A DNA stretch of 41,713 nt, taken from IMG/VR virus record IMGVR_UViG_2778261064_000003, positions 1 to 41,713 of that record; one strand, 5' to 3'. The position numbers and the translations under genes were made by a program. This document shows positions 1-14,120 of this stretch, one piece after another (the first letter of the stretch is position 1; the number at the start of each line of letters is the position of its first letter). The notes under the pieces are model-generated. The model did not search any database, was not told the origin of the DNA, and was given only the letters and a program-made list of their open reading frames with translations. The stretch comes from a virus (Duplodnaviria > Heunggongvirae > Uroviricota > Caudoviricetes).

Positions 1-730
1 ATTATCTCCCGTTTCCTGGACATAAATGCCTGACAACTGACAGCCGGAAGGTGCCCGGAATGTCCATGTAATTTCAGTACCGCCGGGATTATGAAACACC
101 TCGTTGGTATACTGGAAATTACGCACAGCACCAGAATCGGTACTGCTGATGGTGATATCGCTGGTGCCATCAAACAGCACATTGTTAATCCTGCGGGCAT
201 TCTGAAGGCGGGTTGCCGTTCCGGCGTTGCCGCTGATGTTGCTGATGGTGATATCCGAAGTCAGGGGCATACCGTTGACCCTGCGGGTATTCGGTACGGC
301 ACTACTGGCTTTATTTACCGTGTCACGTAATGAAAGTGCATCAATAATTTCATCGGCTGTGGTTTTACCAAGAATGCCGCGCACAAACGCACTGAGCGGC
401 GTTAATGCCATTTCGTCTTCGCCGGTAAAATACGGGAACGTATTATTCTCACCGGTTAATCCGGCAATGGCACCGGCTGAGCCACTGTTCGTAATAAACA
501 GCTTTTTCAGCGCTGTCATAATCTGGTCGGTTGTGTTTTTATCCGGTTTGATATTTGCCTGCCGGAGAATTTCCAGCAGTTCAGACTGAATAATATTAAA
601 CCAGTCTGGTCCTGGATAAGTGGGTGGAATACCGTTCCCGCCTTCGGTGAAATAAAGCGTTGTTTTGCTTAATTCAGCCGCAACAGGCGGCATAACAGGC
701 ACACCCGTATTATTGTCCACGTGAAACATA
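1..730 (-). CDS. Tail fiber protein, N-terminal part (partial, continues past window edge)
   Basis: Open minus-strand frame starting at ATG 730..728 (MFHVDNNTGVPVMPP...) and running off position 1. It sits directly downstream of the gp48-like gene, where Mu has tail fiber S. Not in the ORF track because it is truncated. Confidence 0.6.
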
Positions 731-732
731 AA

Positions 733-1336
733 TTATTCTCCGGTGTAATAATATTCATATTCCGTACCCGCCAGCCGGTAATGCTTCAGCAGGCATTCCA
801 GCTCGCGGGTACGTTCGCTGATTAATGGCGTCATGACGTCATCAATACAGGTAAACCGCCCGGCATCGTTGTCCGGGACTTCCACTTTCAGCAGCCAGCG
901 ATACCGTGCCGGATGCAGCGGGTACATGCAGTCACGCAGGCAGTGGTGCGGCAGAACGGCCGTCACCTTAATGGTGAAGCCCAGCGCCGCCGCAGCGGCT
1001 TCAATCTGCCAGGTTGCCAGCCCGCCTTTGCGGCGGTATTTCTCCACAACGGCCCGGCGGCGGGCTTCCGTTGTGGTGGCGGGCTTCCGTTGTGGTGGCG
1101 GCAATTCCGCATTCCGGCAGCGCCAGATATTGCTCCCACTCCGGCAGCAGCTGGAGCGTGGTTTCCGGTCGCATCTCCACATGCAGGCGCGAGGCATCGT
1201 ATTCAACGCGGGTTAAACGCTCTGCCAGTGCCCTTAAAAAGCGGTTTAAATCCGCGTCGTTATCACGCGGCCATGCCTTACCCCGTGGCATGACCTGTTG
1301 CAGTGCGGTCAGCCATTCCGTCACGCTGTGAGCCAT
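733..1336 (-). pseudogene. gp48-like baseplate/tail protein (DUF2313-like position) disrupted by a 19-bp tandem duplication
   Basis: Two overlapping minus-strand ORFs (1001..1336 and 733..1206) in different frames both encode ATTTEAR around the duplication. Removing one 19-bp copy joins them into one frame of about 194 aa. Confidence 0.65.
1062..1099. repeat. Perfect 19-bp direct tandem duplication (GGGCTTCCGTTGTGGTGGC x2)
   Basis: Seen directly: 1062..1080 and 1081..1099 are identical. Confidence 0.95.
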
Positions 1337-2397
1337 GTCACCTCCCCGATGGTGATAAGCTCATCCACATCACTGGTGGTGTCTTCCCCGATGTTAAGAA
1401 AGTAATCCGTGATACCGGACGTCATACCGATGGACGTGCGCAGCGAGGACACCGGCAGCATCTGACCGGGGGCCAGCGTTTTCTGTAATGCGGTCAGGTT
1501 TGCCCGGACGGCGTTCCTGTTCGCCTGGCTGTCCGGTGTCAGACGGATGGACAGGTCGAGCTTCTTCAGCCTGACCTGCACCGGCCAGACCTCGATGCCG
1601 CCCGGTTTGCCCACCATCACGCCGGTGGCCGGGTGTTTGTGGCAGAACAGATACTGCTCCATTGTCTTCAGGTCGTCCCGTGTGGGGATAATGTCTTCAC
1701 GGTCATCATAAAGCCATGCCAGCCCGACCGTGCTGGGGCCGTGCCACGCATCCCACGCCCACGCACGGCTGACGCCCGGCACTTCACGCGCCCATATCAC
1801 GTAGTCATGCAGCGCACCACCTACCGGGGGATTACGGCGCACATACAGCAGACGGTCCAGCAGCTCTGCGATGGATTCAGTGTCTGCGCCACCGGTGATG
1901 CCACTTTCAGTCACCGCGCCTGTGCTGCCCGTTCCGGGCAACGGGGACAGCAGGGTCAGCACGGCACCGGCAGCAAGATTGCCCGCCACACCAGCTTCTT
2001 CAGCCTGCACGATGACGGTGACCTCGCCGTTCTGTACCTCGCCGGATGTGAGCACCTGATACACCTGATTCGTGTCGGACTGCATCCGGGTTTCTGCCGG
2101 AAGGGGGGACTGACTGGTGAAGGTCACCGGCCCGCTGGCAAAGGTGGCCTGCTTGCGGATAACCCCTTCATACGTTGCTGTTTTGATAATGGTTTCATCA
2201 TCAGACGTGGTGGACGGGATTATCTGGTCCTTGATCCAGCTCTGATGGTCGTATAAATCCCGGACCTGACTGCTGAATGACACGTTCAGCGCCTGCTCAA
2301 CACTGACAGGCGGCAGCTTTTGCAGACCGAGTTCATACGCAATATCTTTCTCGCCGTCGGCAATCAGCTTGCCCAGCGTGGGGATTTCATACGGCAT
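1321..2397 (-). CDS. Baseplate J-like protein (Mu gp47-like)
   Basis: 358-aa ORF in the Mu tail gene order between gp46-like and gp48-like; size fits baseplate J family. Confidence 0.7.
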   Translation of the reverse strand: MPYEIPTLGKLIADGEKDIAYELGLQKLPPVSVEQALNVSFSSQVRDLYDHQSWIKDQIIPSTTSDDETIIKTATYEGVIRKQATFASGPVTFTSQSPLPAETRMQSDTNQVYQVLTSGEVQNGEVTVIVQAEEAGVAGNLAAGAVLTLLSPLPGTGSTGAVTESGITGGADTESIAELLDRLLYVRRNPPVGGALHDYVIWAREVPGVSRAWAWDAWHGPSTVGLAWLYDDREDIIPTRDDLKTMEQYLFCHKHPATGVMVGKPGGIEVWPVQVRLKKLDLSIRLTPDSQANRNAVRANLTALQKTLAPGQMLPVSSLRTSIGMTSGITDYFLNIGEDTTSDVDELITIGEVTWLTA

Positions 2398-8421: not shown

Positions 8422-9897
8422 TTAAACTCTGAACTGAATCAGGCCTGCCAGCACACGCAGCTGGTTCACCAGATTCGGGTGGCAGATAAAGTTCAGGCGG
8501 TTTTTATCGCTGCTGTCGCGTGTCACCTGAAGCGTGTCCCTGTAATCGCTGAAGTTCTCCACAAGGCCTGCCGGGATAAGTTCGGTCTGGCAGATATCCA
8601 GCAGCTCTGCGGTGCACAGCTTCGGCGTCATCACCGGCTGCCCCGCATCCAGCGAGTCCAGCACGTCATCATCCGCCAGCTTGTGGCGCGGATAACGGTT
8701 CGAGAAACGGTTTTTGATGATGTAACGGATACGGCCCAGCGTGGCGGGCGACTGCACATCAAGGTACGACACATCCGCATCACCGTACTGATTAACCCGG
8801 TACATGGTGATTTCACGCTCTATGCAGACGTTATCCCCGGCGTCCACCATGTGCGTGGCAATGCCGTCATGCAGCAGCAGGTTACGTTCCGGCATATCCC
8901 AGCGAACATTACGCGCAGGCGGCAGAATGCCGGTCAGGACCAGCGTCTGAAGCGGACGCGCCGGGTCAATGGCAAGGTGATACGCTGCCGTTGCGCCGTA
9001 TGACGCGGCCCACATCCACGCCGGGTGCGGTGACAGGTTGGTGCCAATACAGCTAATCAGCCAGTCATTGCGGGTTTCACCAAACGTGCCTGTCTCGCCG
9101 TGCGTGCCACGAAACGCCGTCCATAGCTGCGCTTCCATCATCCTGAGCGGCCCCCAGCGGTTCAGCAGTTCATCACGCAGGGTGTTCAGGCTTTGCGTGT
9201 CGGTGAACGGGGCGATGATATCGGTAAACCACTCCGGGCCGATGGCCGCAACGGCGTCTGCCATTTCCGGTGTCCCGGTGCCGCCGGTAAACGCGGTTGC
9301 GGTCACCTTCACACCTGCCGGGAAGGCTTCACCGGTGTAGTAGTTCAGGCGAACGTCGGCACCGTTGCCGGTGACGCCGTGCCAGTTCACGGTCAGCTCC
9401 ACGGTATCCGTGGCATCATCCTTCACCGCAGCGGCCACCTGCGTGGCAGGCTTTTTCGTCACCGCATCAGCAATGGCTTTTGCAATGTTTTCTTTGGTAT
9501 CCCCGGCGCTCACGCCCACCTGAACGGAGACACCGTTAATCAGCAGAGCCACCGTTCCGGCCTCTGTTGCTGTCCCCAGCACGGTCAGCGTGGCTTTTGC
9601 GGCAGCGCCAACAGGTGCGGCAACCGGCATTGCCCAGGTTTCCGTGTACGTGTTGGCACGACGCAGTATTTTGAGCATTTCAGCCAGCATCGACCCTTTG
9701 CCATAAAGCTGCTCTGCCTGGCTGTCACTGGTGATGCGGGTCAGTGACAGGGCGTCTGCGCTGCCGGACGATACCGCATGGCCCATGACCAGAATTTTTC
9801 GGCTTTGCGCGGATGCACTGTCCAGCGCCTGTGAATTGTCAATATCGATCACGACGAGCGGGACGCGGATATCATCAGGAATTGAACCCAGCGACAT
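8422..9897 (-). CDS. Contractile tail sheath protein (Mu L-like)
   Basis: 491-aa ORF, size and position typical of myovirus sheath upstream of tube. Confidence 0.8.
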   Translation of the reverse strand: MSLGSIPDDIRVPLVVIDIDNSQALDSASAQSRKILVMGHAVSSGSADALSLTRITSDSQAEQLYGKGSMLAEMLKILRRANTYTETWAMPVAAPVGAAAKATLTVLGTATEAGTVALLINGVSVQVGVSAGDTKENIAKAIADAVTKKPATQVAAAVKDDATDTVELTVNWHGVTGNGADVRLNYYTGEAFPAGVKVTATAFTGGTGTPEMADAVAAIGPEWFTDIIAPFTDTQSLNTLRDELLNRWGPLRMMEAQLWTAFRGTHGETGTFGETRNDWLISCIGTNLSPHPAWMWAASYGATAAYHLAIDPARPLQTLVLTGILPPARNVRWDMPERNLLLHDGIATHMVDAGDNVCIEREITMYRVNQYGDADVSYLDVQSPATLGRIRYIIKNRFSNRYPRHKLADDDVLDSLDAGQPVMTPKLCTAELLDICQTELIPAGLVENFSDYRDTLQVTRDSSDKNRLNFICHPNLVNQLRVLAGLIQFRV

Positions 9898-10097
9898 TAT
9901 TTTTTCCCTCTGGTTTTGTTGCTATTTTTCGGAAGCGCGGTTATTTCCACATCTCCCTCGGCTTCACGGCGCAGCCAGTAAGCGCAGACGTCGAGACGTT
10001 CCCCTTCCGGGGATAAATGCGCGCCATCCGGTTTACGGACACGGACGTTTTCCCGCGCTGGCTTAATCAGTTTCTGTTCCATCGTCACCCCGTACAT
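9897..10097 (-). CDS. Hypothetical small protein
   Basis: 66-aa ORF filling the gap between gp38-like and sheath genes; no recognisable motif. Confidence 0.3.
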   Translation of the reverse strand: MYGVTMEQKLIKPARENVRVRKPDGAHLSPEGERLDVCAYWLRREAEGDVEITALPKNSNKTRGKK

Positions 10098-10674
10098 GGA
10101 TCACGTCGTTAATTTCAGTGTGTTCACCGCAGCGCAGCGTTGCCCCGAGGCGCAGGAAGTCCGGGAGCGCGGCGAGATCAATCTCTTCATCCAGCCGGAA
10201 TTCCTGCTCCCACGTCACCGCCCACATGGTGACACCCAGCCCGTCGAGGCTGGCGGAGTAAATGTTGTCTGCCCGCACATCAGCAGCCAGGCGTTCAGCC
10301 CCCATGCCTGCTGTGGCATCCGACGACAGCAGGCGTTTGATCACCTTTCCGGCCAGCACTTCACAGCGCACGTCGCGGGAATACCCCCACGAATCCGTTG
10401 CCATGATGTAAGCCACCCAGGTAACCAGACCGGACAGCCCACCGCGCGGGTTGATATCCCGGACACGCAGGGCAGCTACCCGGATACAGCCGGTGCGACC
10501 GGACAGATAGCGCTTCACTTCTTCCGGGCTGTTGAACTGGCCGATGTGACGCTCCACCACGTCGGCCCGGTCAGGGGTTTTCCCCTGAAGTGCTGTTTTC
10601 AGCCAGGCCACAATGCGCTCTGCGGCCGCAACGGTGCTCCCCGGTGTGCGCAGTTCAGGGCGTTGTTCTGTCAT
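10063..10674 (-). CDS. Mu gp38-like virion protein (function unknown)
   Basis: 203-aa ORF in the Mu head-tail joining block. Confidence 0.55.
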   Translation of the reverse strand: MTEQRPELRTPGSTVAAAERIVAWLKTALQGKTPDRADVVERHIGQFNSPEEVKRYLSGRTGCIRVAALRVRDINPRGGLSGLVTWVAYIMATDSWGYSRDVRCEVLAGKVIKRLLSSDATAGMGAERLAADVRADNIYSASLDGLGVTMWAVTWEQEFRLDEEIDLAALPDFLRLGATLRCGEHTEINDVIHVRGDDGTETD

Positions 10675-11216
10675 GGCAGAACCTCCTTCCAGAAATGACT
10701 GATAACCTGTTGCAGCTCCTGCTGGTTGGCAGAAGACAGCCCCAGAAATTCACGTTGTGGAATGTTCATCATGCGGTTATGTGCGCCGACGGTCTGCCAG
10801 ACCGGATATTTCAGCGCCCGCCCGAAACACTGCGAGATAAGCCGTTTGTGGGCGCTGACCGGCACACTGCCGGAAAAGCCGTCATTCATGATGCGGGCAT
10901 AATCCAGCGGTGAACCGATACGCACCACGCGGTTTTCCACGATGTACTGGATACTCTCCAGCAGATGGCCTTCACCACGCAGCAGACTCTGGTTGCCGTG
11001 GCGGGTCTTTTTGTACCCGTCAGACCAGTCCGGCCAGCGTTGTCCGCCCGGACTGCTTTTCTCATCGATGATGCGGCGGCGGGTCTGTGATTCCACCACC
11101 GCACCAATGCTCTCCAGCAGCTCTGCCTGCAATGAACCATCTGCCAGCTTTTCAACGGCACGGCGGATATCCTCCAGCCGCTGGTCACCGCTGATCTGTA
11201 CAGAAATCCCCATCAC
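10671..11216 (-). CDS. Phage virion morphogenesis protein (Mu G family-like)
   Basis: 181-aa ORF whose sequence pattern I recognise as the phage virion morphogenesis family. Confidence 0.55.
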   Translation of the reverse strand: MMGISVQISGDQRLEDIRRAVEKLADGSLQAELLESIGAVVESQTRRRIIDEKSSPGGQRWPDWSDGYKKTRHGNQSLLRGEGHLLESIQYIVENRVVRIGSPLDYARIMNDGFSGSVPVSAHKRLISQCFGRALKYPVWQTVGAHNRMMNIPQREFLGLSSANQQELQQVISHFWKEVLP

Positions 11217-11650
11217 AGCACCCCTTTCAGGTTGTTACGGGTGAACAGCCGGGCATTGGCACCCACCACAATGATTTTCCCGTGGTCGGTTTCTGCCGGG
11301 GTGGCATACGTCGGCAGGCCCAGATCACGGGTGCCGTTCGCCATCTCACGCAGGGTTTTAATGGCGTCGTCGTAGCGTTTCTGGATCAGCTCAGTGATTT
11401 GATTGTCACGCTCTGACAACCAGTAAAACGCCAGCGATACCGCCACGCGTTGCAGCGGGCGCGGGATTTCCGTCACTCCCAGCGGCAGCTGGTAGAGGCG
11501 GGACAGAAACGAATCAATTTCCGCTTCGGCATCACTGATGGCCTGACGGATTTTGTCTTCATCCAGCCCGTTGGTTTCCCGGTTAATCGCCATGTTCCAG
11601 ACAAGATTGCCGTCCGCGCGTAACAGGTCTTCCTGCGTGATGTACCCCAT
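11213..11650 (-). CDS. Mu gp36-like head-tail protein (DUF1320-like)
   Basis: 145-aa ORF in the Mu head-tail joining block, translationally coupled to neighbours. Confidence 0.55.
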   Translation of the reverse strand: MGYITQEDLLRADGNLVWNMAINRETNGLDEDKIRQAISDAEAEIDSFLSRLYQLPLGVTEIPRPLQRVAVSLAFYWLSERDNQITELIQKRYDDAIKTLREMANGTRDLGLPTYATPAETDHGKIIVVGANARLFTRNNLKGVL

Positions 11651-11961
11651 CAGCCTTTCTCCGCTTCCCGGACAATCAGATTCGGCTCTGCCATCAGGCG
11701 GGTGGCAACCGCAGCGGTCACCGCCACATCCTCACCGGCATGTGACCAGAAACGGCCACAGCGCCAGAACCCGTTTTCAGACACGGCCCGGACGTTCAGC
11801 CGGACAGGGGCGTCACCCTGTACAGCAACCGGGTCTTCAGCCGGACGTGGTTCATTCGCCTGACCGTCAGCCATAATAACGTCTGCCAGCGGTGCCGGGT
11901 TTTCCTGTGCAGCGCTGTTCTTTGCGGCTTTCGCGCCTTTGGTTCCTGCTTTTTCACTCAT
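11650..11961 (-). CDS. Hypothetical protein (Mu gp35 position)
   Basis: 103-aa Ala/Pro-rich ORF downstream of the major head gene. Confidence 0.5.
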   Translation of the reverse strand: MSEKAGTKGAKAAKNSAAQENPAPLADVIMADGQANEPRPAEDPVAVQGDAPVRLNVRAVSENGFWRCGRFWSHAGEDVAVTAAVATRLMAEPNLIVREAEKG

Positions 11962-11965
11962 GACT

Positions 11966-11983
11966 CTGCCTTTTAAAAGGCAG
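11966..11983 (-). promoter_or_regulatory. Perfect 18-bp palindrome CTGCCTTTTAAAAGGCAG between major head gene and next gene
   Basis: Seen directly in the 81-bp intergenic region after the major capsid gene. Confidence 0.3.
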
Positions 11984-12042
11984 TTAAAAGGGCATTCACA
12001 GCGCCTTTTAACTGCGGGTTACAACAGATTACGGATGACGGG

Positions 12043-12945
12043 TTATGCCGGGGTGGTGATGTACGGGCTGTCCACGATGTCCACATCCTTGTACCAGATG
12101 TTGGAATCGCCGCCGTTAACCAGCATGGCGTCAATGATGCGCTTCGCGTCCGCGCGGTTTCTCGGCCCCACCACAAGGGTGGTCGGGCGGATGCCCAGCG
12201 GTTCACCGTTGGTGGTCTTCATACCCAGCAGCAGATTGCTGGCCTTCTCGTAGTTCTCCGCTGTCAGTGCCGCACGGGAACCGACGGCGGTCTGCCAGAA
12301 GCCGAAGCCCGCATTGCAGCGACCGTCCACCCCGTAAAGGAACTCGTTATTCTTGAAGGTGTGCTCGCTGTTCAGATCATCCAGGGCTTCAAACTTAAAG
12401 GCGCGTCGCGTCTGCCAGATGATGGGTTTCAGTACCTGAGAATCATCAATCAGGAACCACGGTTCCCCCTGGTCTGATGCCGGGGTGCCGACAACGTTGC
12501 TGTATGTGCCGTCGCCCAGCGGGTGGTCTTCATCAAAGAAGTTCTGACCGTCAAAACACAGGGTGTTAAACCCGGCACACAGCAGGGGGTAACACAGCTT
12601 GTCCGGGAACTCCGACGTCTGGCGGCCATAGCGTTCAGCGATAATGCTGTACTGACCAATCTGTTCGTCTTCAATGTGTTCGCGTTTAACGCGGATCGAA
12701 CTTTCCCAGGTTTTGTTCGCAAGGGTGTAACCATAACCGTCCAGCGTTGCCATCTGACGGGCGCTGACCCATTCCTTAATCTCCGGTAAATCTTTCATCC
12801 AGCCGTAGGTATTGGAGGCGGACGAACTCGGGATTTCAGAGGCGATGCGCTGCCACTGTGGGGTGACACCACTCAGCCCACGGGTATAAGCGGCGCTCAG
12901 ACAGGTGGTCAGCGCGTGAAGGACTTCGGAAGTGACTGCTCCCAT
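12043..12945 (-). CDS. Major head subunit (Mu T-like)
   Basis: 300-aa ORF directly downstream of protease/scaffold gene, as in Mu. Confidence 0.75.
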   Translation of the reverse strand: MGAVTSEVLHALTTCLSAAYTRGLSGVTPQWQRIASEIPSSSASNTYGWMKDLPEIKEWVSARQMATLDGYGYTLANKTWESSIRVKREHIEDEQIGQYSIIAERYGRQTSEFPDKLCYPLLCAGFNTLCFDGQNFFDEDHPLGDGTYSNVVGTPASDQGEPWFLIDDSQVLKPIIWQTRRAFKFEALDDLNSEHTFKNNEFLYGVDGRCNAGFGFWQTAVGSRAALTAENYEKASNLLLGMKTTNGEPLGIRPTTLVVGPRNRADAKRIIDAMLVNGGDSNIWYKDVDIVDSPYITTPA

Positions 12946-13980: not shown

Positions 13981-14120
13981 CACTGAAAACGGGGAAATAC
14001 CCCCTTCAAAACCCCTTCAAAAACGCCACAGCATCTTCAAAAACGTCAGAATGCACATTCACGCCATCAGAATAAAAAACGCGTTTCTGATGCGTTTCAG
14101 GGGGATTTACGGCGGGAGGG

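Follow-up and report, generated by a model that had tools for sequence, protein, structure and literature searches.

The window, by which we mean the whole stretch of 41,713 nucleotides that was analysed, is the complete contig PTRP01000035.1 of assembly GCA_002965585.1, which is labelled 'unclassified Escherichia'. Positions 1-30473 (minus strand) carry a Mu-like prophage part with genes for tail, head and lysis functions, Mor, Gam, MuB, MuA, ner and a repressor; matches to the Pfam families Mu-transpos_C, HTH_Tnp_Mu_1, Phage-MuB_C, Mor, Portal_Mu and Mu-like_gpT place this part among the Mu-like transposable prophages. Towards the start of the window, at 733-1336 on the minus strand, lies a frameshifted gp48-like gene (YmfQ family, baseplate wedge protein 3), which measures 604 nt instead of 585. 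The gene order is gp44-gp45-gp46-gp47-gp48-fibre, with gp48 directly after the Baseplate_J gene gp47 (wedge protein 2; 1321-2397, minus strand), which is intact, and before the tail-fibre genes. The downstream neighbour (1-729, minus strand) encodes a 269-aa tail or fibre protein, is cut by the contig end and has its ATG 3 nt past the gp48 stop codon; in sister contigs, it is followed by a gene for a tail-fibre assembly protein and then by one for an Stf-like fibre.

The cause of the frameshift is a tandem duplication. The 19-bp unit GGGCTTCCGTTGTGGTGGC (given as the plus strand; the gene lies on the minus strand) is present twice, at 1062-1080 and 1081-1099, and the two copies are 100% identical. 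The initial annotation had reported a perfect duplication at these positions from a reading of the sequence, and both our script and Tandem Repeats Finder agree with it. By the script, identity at a period of 19 extends over 1059-1101, that is, two full copies and a 5-bp GGCGG overhang, so that the tract has the form GGCGG-N14-GGCGG-N14-GGCGG, or, on the plus strand and with its surroundings, ...CCCGGC GGCGG GCTTCCGTTGTGGT GGCGG GCTTCCGTTGTGGT GGCGG CAATTCC.... Tandem Repeats Finder described it as 2.3 copies of period 19 with 100% matches and a score of 86, the highest of any repeat in the window (the runner-up scored 44), and a sequence of 41.7 kb would be expected to contain about 1.5e-7 perfect 19-bp tandem duplications by chance.

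The tract overlaps a quasi-palindrome at 1044-1076, found by DNA folding, in which CCACAACGG (1044-1052) pairs with CCGTTGTGG (1068-1076) in a 9-bp stem that includes an inner GCCCG/CGGGC stem. Its fold has a z score of -3.1 to -3.6, and none of 200 shuffled sequences folded equally well. The 3' arm falls within the duplicated unit and thus occurs a second time, at 1087-1095; the quasi-palindrome itself exists in the single-copy allele too. Elsewhere in the window, a perfect 11-bp tandem repeat (CCCCTTCAAAA, two copies) occupies 14001-14022, in the gap that separates the protease/scaffold gene from the minor head gene; it is not specific to this lineage, because the alignment with the prophage of E. 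coli 06-00048 runs through it without an indel.

The 19 additional nucleotides shift the reading frame by +1 after codon 85, and the C-terminal 109 residues are lost from the protein read from the native start. The first ORF (1001-1336, minus strand) encodes 111 aa, consisting of 85 native N-terminal residues followed by 26 out-of-frame residues, and equals the protein WP_241957500.1; the second (733-1206, minus strand) encodes 157 aa and represents the native C-terminal part, from about residue 80 to residue 194. The ORF translations bear out the earlier description of two overlapping frames that both encode ATTTEAR, and removal of one copy in silico restores an open frame of 585 nt and 194 aa, in agreement with the single frame of about 194 aa proposed there. 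A member of the Phage_Mu_Gp48/YmfQ family would be expected to have one uninterrupted ORF of about 175-195 aa, in place of which we found ORFs of 111 and 157 aa. Judged by its reading frames, then, the split gene is a pseudogene of the gp48/YmfQ family and no functional member of it.

Identity of the gene and the expected loss of the wedge protein

The repaired protein matched positions 2-149 of the 150 in the profile of Pfam family PF10076 (Phage_Mu_Gp48); its score of 111 bits exceeds the cut-off of 37.4, and both ORF fragments also match this family. Residues 4-191 of the repaired protein align with residues 2-175 of Mu gp48 (PDB code 9ki1, chain a; NCBI 'YmfQ family protein') with an E value of 2e-21. 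The same structure was the best Foldseek match of the predicted model, with a probability of 1.00 and a low TM score, the latter because the monomer model is only of moderate quality (AlphaFold, pLDDT 66); after 9ki1, the structure search returned baseplate triplex or wedge chains of phiCD508 and diffocin. The predicted model was used solely to place the break relative to secondary structure. The profile match and the alignment with 9ki1 substantiate the original assignment of the gene to the Mu gp48 type. Homology with Mu gp48 is full-length and the gene occupies the equivalent position after gp47, although the repaired protein is only about 31% identical to its Mu counterpart and has a 15-residue insertion and, unlike Mu gp48, the gene is broken by the +19 frameshift, so that no full-length protein is encoded.

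In Mu, gp48 is taken to be essential on the strength of the virion structure (PMC11915804) and of classical Mu genetics. We compared the repaired protein with 26 homologues (48-74% identity) and found Arg86, Arg87, Glu92, Lys93, Arg96, Gly98, Gly99, Leu100, Trp103, Ile105 and Glu106 to be invariant; the break thus immediately precedes the most conserved block of the family. In the predicted model, it falls at the start of a helix comprising residues 83-95, and not at a domain boundary. [quoted passage not shown] By alignment with 9ki1, residues 150-173 or thereabouts are the equivalent of this loop, far downstream of the break.

Translation of the duplicated allele would give the 85 native residues, 26 junk residues and a stop, and what is missing would include both the most conserved motif and the fibre-docking region. 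No functional wedge protein is to be expected, and any particles formed would have defective or fibreless baseplates; at most, the N-terminal fragment could join the wedge core, where it would be unable to complete the wedge or hold a fibre. Translational coupling to the fibre gene would plausibly be lost as well. It is conceivable that another YmfQ homologue, encoded elsewhere in the genome, supplies the function in trans.

Could the split gene nevertheless work, through re-initiation, through frameshifting, as two fragments that assemble with one another, or by virtue of a useful N-terminal fragment alone? Gene callers do predict two products, both of which match PF10076, and the part retained at the N-terminus supplies, in Mu, one helix of the three-helix core bundle (PMC11915804). 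However, the second ORF has five candidate starts (TTG at 1206, ATG at 1197, ATG at 1182, TTG at 1104 and GTG at 1047), and no Shine-Dalgarno-like sequence was found at any of them, on which ground we rejected re-initiation at an internal start. Programmed ribosomal frameshifting was rejected likewise: neither a slippery heptamer (XXXYYYZ) nor a homopolymer occurs within the overlap of the two ORFs, which begins at nucleotide 131 of the gene, the sole XXXYYYZ motif lying outside it at nucleotide 87, and the homologues consist of one ORF. The break interrupts a predicted helix shortly before the invariant motif, and no homologue that we examined is organized as two ORFs by design. We therefore regard a working split gene as very unlikely and, from the position of the break before the conserved block and the lack of both Shine-Dalgarno starts and a slippery site, we infer that gp48 function has been lost.

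One-copy homologues and two-copy carriers

Comparison with homologous prophages, as suggested in the initial annotation, showed the gene to be unsplit elsewhere. Among 5,426 complete E. coli genomes, 50 records matched and all 50 cover the gene; the 30 matches listed of these 50 measure 585 bp, which is the single-copy length, or 577 bp in those that begin only at base 9 of the query, and the E. coli records are annotated as one 'YmfQ family protein'. Alignment with two E. coli records produced a clean 19-column gap in otherwise near-identical sequence. The intact allele of E. coli 06-00048 (WP_065226821.1) has one copy of the 19-mer and, apart from the 19-bp gap, differs by one base, giving 96.7% identity over 604 nt. 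Over about 28 kb, the Mu-like region shares about 96% identity with the annotated Mu-like prophage of that strain, and no sizeable indel other than the 19-bp insertion appears in the comparison. In the collection of isolated phages, a DNA search at near identity gave no match; relatives there are recognizable at the protein level only, with identities of at most 57%, and 39 of the 40 protein-level matches form one uninterrupted stretch. The exact 194-aa translation of the repaired gene was found as a protein on 138 public contigs. A gene that is normally split can thus be discarded as an explanation, given the uninterrupted E. coli matches and 39 of 40 phage records; since one copy is found throughout the homologues, with the 19 extra bases (1081-1099) missing from all that were examined, the one-copy state is the ancestral one.

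In exact scans, the 38-mer spanning the two-copy junction was absent from the species-representative genome contigs, a set from which the carrier lineage is missing, and the 28-mer was absent from the metagenome contigs. The exact 111-aa product WP_241957500.1 was found on eight contigs, and a look-up by the exact neighbouring gp47 protein, in which 12 contigs were read, returned five loci. The 38-mer is present in all five, which come from GCA_002965565.1, GCA_002965585.1, GCA_031220325.1, GCA_015337505.1 and the Logan assembly of SRR2914463; over 8.2-8.4 kb they match the window with 100% identity, and there was no one-copy sibling of the carrier lineage among them. Two of the carrier assemblies have no protein called across the gp48 gene, which is the expected outcome of pseudogene annotation.

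These carriers also bear on whether the duplication might be an artefact of assembly or sequencing, the genome in truth having a single copy. It is the case that the evidence consists of consensus contigs and that all the carriers are short-read draft assemblies. Against this, the 38-mer recurs in four NCBI assemblies of differing contig structure as well as in the independent Logan assembly; the 43-bp tract is far below the read length; and no k-mer with k of at least 25 is repeated at the duplication site, for which reason a de Bruijn graph is unable to generate the second copy. We consider an artefact extremely improbable, and the recurrence of the two-copy state in the four NCBI assemblies and the Logan run speaks against the assembly-error reading for which the initial annotation had allowed. 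Because it is shared by several identical assemblies and rests on no repeated k-mers, the duplication is, on the evidence of these consensus sequences, real and fixed in one clonal Escherichia lineage.

Slipped misalignment is a classical route to short tandem duplications, and hairpins favour slippage. In the alignment, the single-copy alleles carry GGCGG twice, exactly 19 bp apart, and the duplication probably had a single origin in replication slippage between these two microhomologies, beside the hairpin-forming quasi-palindrome. A nascent strand that had passed the second GGCGG would have re-paired with the first and then recopied 19 bases, an event that would require no special machinery.

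Structure of the prophage

A complete Mu-like transposable prophage would have two ends (TG...CA) and, on either side, a 5-bp target duplication. The left end of the present element is at about 30473 (...CCTCTTCA), close to three AGTATCAAAT repeats. Immediately beyond it, at 30476-30754 (minus strand), is what the Mu-like insertion has left of the lambdoid minor tail gene U, matching Pfam positions 1-94 of 130; in this region (30290-30754), the Mu-like prophage can be seen to have been inserted inside gene U of a lambdoid prophage. The lambdoid head and lysis module (30476-41713) comprises Nu1, terminase, portal, S49 protease, D, E, FI, FII, Z and the truncated U', and shares 99.7% identity with prophages of many E. 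coli genomes. For the host flank, serT-hyaA, which is available in the sister contig L008 (DAPGOY010000030.1 of GCA_031220325.1, a 60-kb short-read contig that is identical to the window where the two overlap), the identity to E. coli is only 96.3%. The discrepancy between the identities of prophage and host flank suggests recent exchange of prophages between Escherichia species and, by these sequence identities, the carrier clone is a non-coli Escherichia.

The window breaks off in the fibre region, and the right side of the Mu-like element falls outside it. Beyond position 1 of the window, L008 continues in the order gp48, tail protein, assembly protein, Stf-like fibre, DUF4376, tRNA-Ser(UGA) and hyaA. 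We found no com, no mom and no Mu right end in L008 between the fibre genes and the lambdoid attR/serT. Identity profiles, drawn against non-parental references, changed here: up to about 9700, L008 tracks Mu-like prophages at 98-100%, whereas from about 9800 it is about 100% identical to the lambdoid right end at serT of E. coli N96 and only 72-93% identical to the Mu-like references. The crossover, at about 9700-9800, is located inside the 749-aa Stf-like gene (in a region noted at 9650-12600). The simplest reading of L008, a single short-read contig, is that the Mu right end was lost by fibre-gene recombination: exchange between homologous fibre genes would have deleted this end together with the lambdoid genes V-J, and what is left would be a fused, immobile remnant.

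The remaining Mu-like genes in the window, including that for gpT, all equal their intact relatives in length. Judged by sequence, the window accordingly shows no gene lesion other than that of gp48, which could be of very recent date. The closest complete relative of the prophage, that of E. coli 06-00048, keeps com and its right end and has a different lesion of its own, a frameshifted gpT (30866-31801 of locus L006, the chromosome of that strain); the gpT gene of the window is intact at 12043-12945.

Decay, selection and reversibility

For the fate of the gene, the initial annotation had offered two alternatives, an inactivating mutation in an essential tail gene and a reversible, slippage-prone site. 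The first is supported by the position of the break before the conserved block and by the intact state of the homologues. Because the prophage is already fused and probably immobile, the lesion is best read as neutral decay and not as regulation, and we believe that the most probable account, by a wide measure, is that of a gp48 pseudogene made by slippage, fixed in one clone, in the course of neutral decay of a probably immobile prophage remnant. The neutrality of the lesion in this account is our inference.

An inactivation that was selected, in the sense of domestication, with the host lineage favoured by the knockout of a tail gene, would be a rival to this account. In its favour, the allele is fixed in all sampled members of the lineage, and other lineages have other frameshift alleles of the gp48-type gene. 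However, fixation among near-identical clonal genomes requires no selection; the related 06-00048 prophage, with its different lesion in gpT, looks like random decay; and, from what is understood of phage biology, loss of a wedge protein gives the host no protection from killing upon induction and no clear benefit. Selected inactivation thus seems to us improbable, and we retain neutral decay.

The second alternative, a site that slips back to one copy frequently enough to switch, or to hedge, the production of tails, is physically possible. A shift by one period leaves 24 bp in perfect register (1059-1101), so that precise deletion of one copy should be mechanistically easy, and there are precedents: reversible gene inactivation by a short tandem duplication in phcA of Ralstonia is cited in a preprint (bioRxiv 10.1101/2023.04.27.538605), and a reversible duplication-plus-inversion is known in agr of S. 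aureus (PMC6686034). Several other frameshift alleles of the family also break near the duplicated segment. Nevertheless, the five loci of the lineage all have exactly two copies and are otherwise identical, at least as consensus assemblies; the other lineages examined all have one; the junction was found nowhere else in the scans of species-representative genome contigs and metagenome contigs; and the tract is no multi-copy short repeat conserved in homologues, as would be expected of a phase-variable locus. Even among the precedents, another strain with an agrA duplication yielded no revertants (PMC6686034). Moreover, since the prophage appears to be without its right end, a return to one copy would probably not by itself yield a phage again. 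With copy number constant in the lineage, the suggestion of a working switch finds no support, and we think it most unlikely that one operates here.

The independently frameshifted alleles in other assemblies (P0017, P0018, P0020, P0021, P0041, P0069 and P0088), which belong to unrelated lineages, deserve description in their own right. In P0017, 8 nt have been deleted a few codons upstream of where the duplication lies; elsewhere the frame shifts after codon 67, 76 or 91, and in a Klebsiella allele the break follows the LPDC motif. Altogether, five of the nine public frameshifted alleles break in or beside codons 67-91. Sequencing error may account for some of them. As far as the sequences indicate, their scatter is that of sporadic decay, perhaps combined with a segment that is locally prone to indels. 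We entertain only as a speculation with little in its favour that the GC-rich quasi-palindromic segment (residues 67-91 or so) is a recurrent and perhaps reversible indel hot spot in enterobacterial Mu-like prophages; if it were, the 19-bp duplication would be one 'off' state of baseplate and fibre attachment, revertible by precise slippage. In a different kind of rearrangement, the 176-aa E. coli protein P0031, annotated as a tail fibre assembly protein, aligned at 89% identity with the N-terminal 59% of the gp48 fragment, and may be a gp48-TAP fusion that resulted from a deletion in another prophage.

The practical consequences of reading the locus as a decayed gene concern annotation. The appropriate label is that of a frameshifted gp48/YmfQ pseudogene, in place of two 'putative phage tail proteins' (WP_241957500.1 being the truncated product), and censuses of prophages should score this prophage as defective. 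Beyond annotation the meaning is small, although the locus is a clean textbook example of a tandem duplication associated with microhomology and a hairpin, and the duplication could act as a lineage marker for this non-coli Escherichia clone. Were the site to flip at a measurable rate, the list of duplication-based reversible switches would gain a minor entry; nothing here suggests such flipping.

Pneumococcal cap3A is a known case of a slipped-strand tandem duplication that inactivates a gene, sometimes reversibly. In common with cap3A and with phcA of Ralstonia, the gp48 duplication is short and perfect, not a multiple of three in length, flanked by microhomology and located within a coding sequence, and in each case the exact loss of one copy would restore the gene. 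It differs from them in that neither reversion nor variation in copy number was seen in the five consensus loci, and in that gp48 belongs to a defective prophage and underlies no host trait under fluctuating selection. The closer comparison is with the decaying defective prophages of enterobacteria, of which the present one is a typical case: like them, it has a frameshifted late structural gene and, like them, it is nested in, and has apparently recombined with, another prophage. In these respects the lesion is ordinary prophage decay of a well-known kind.
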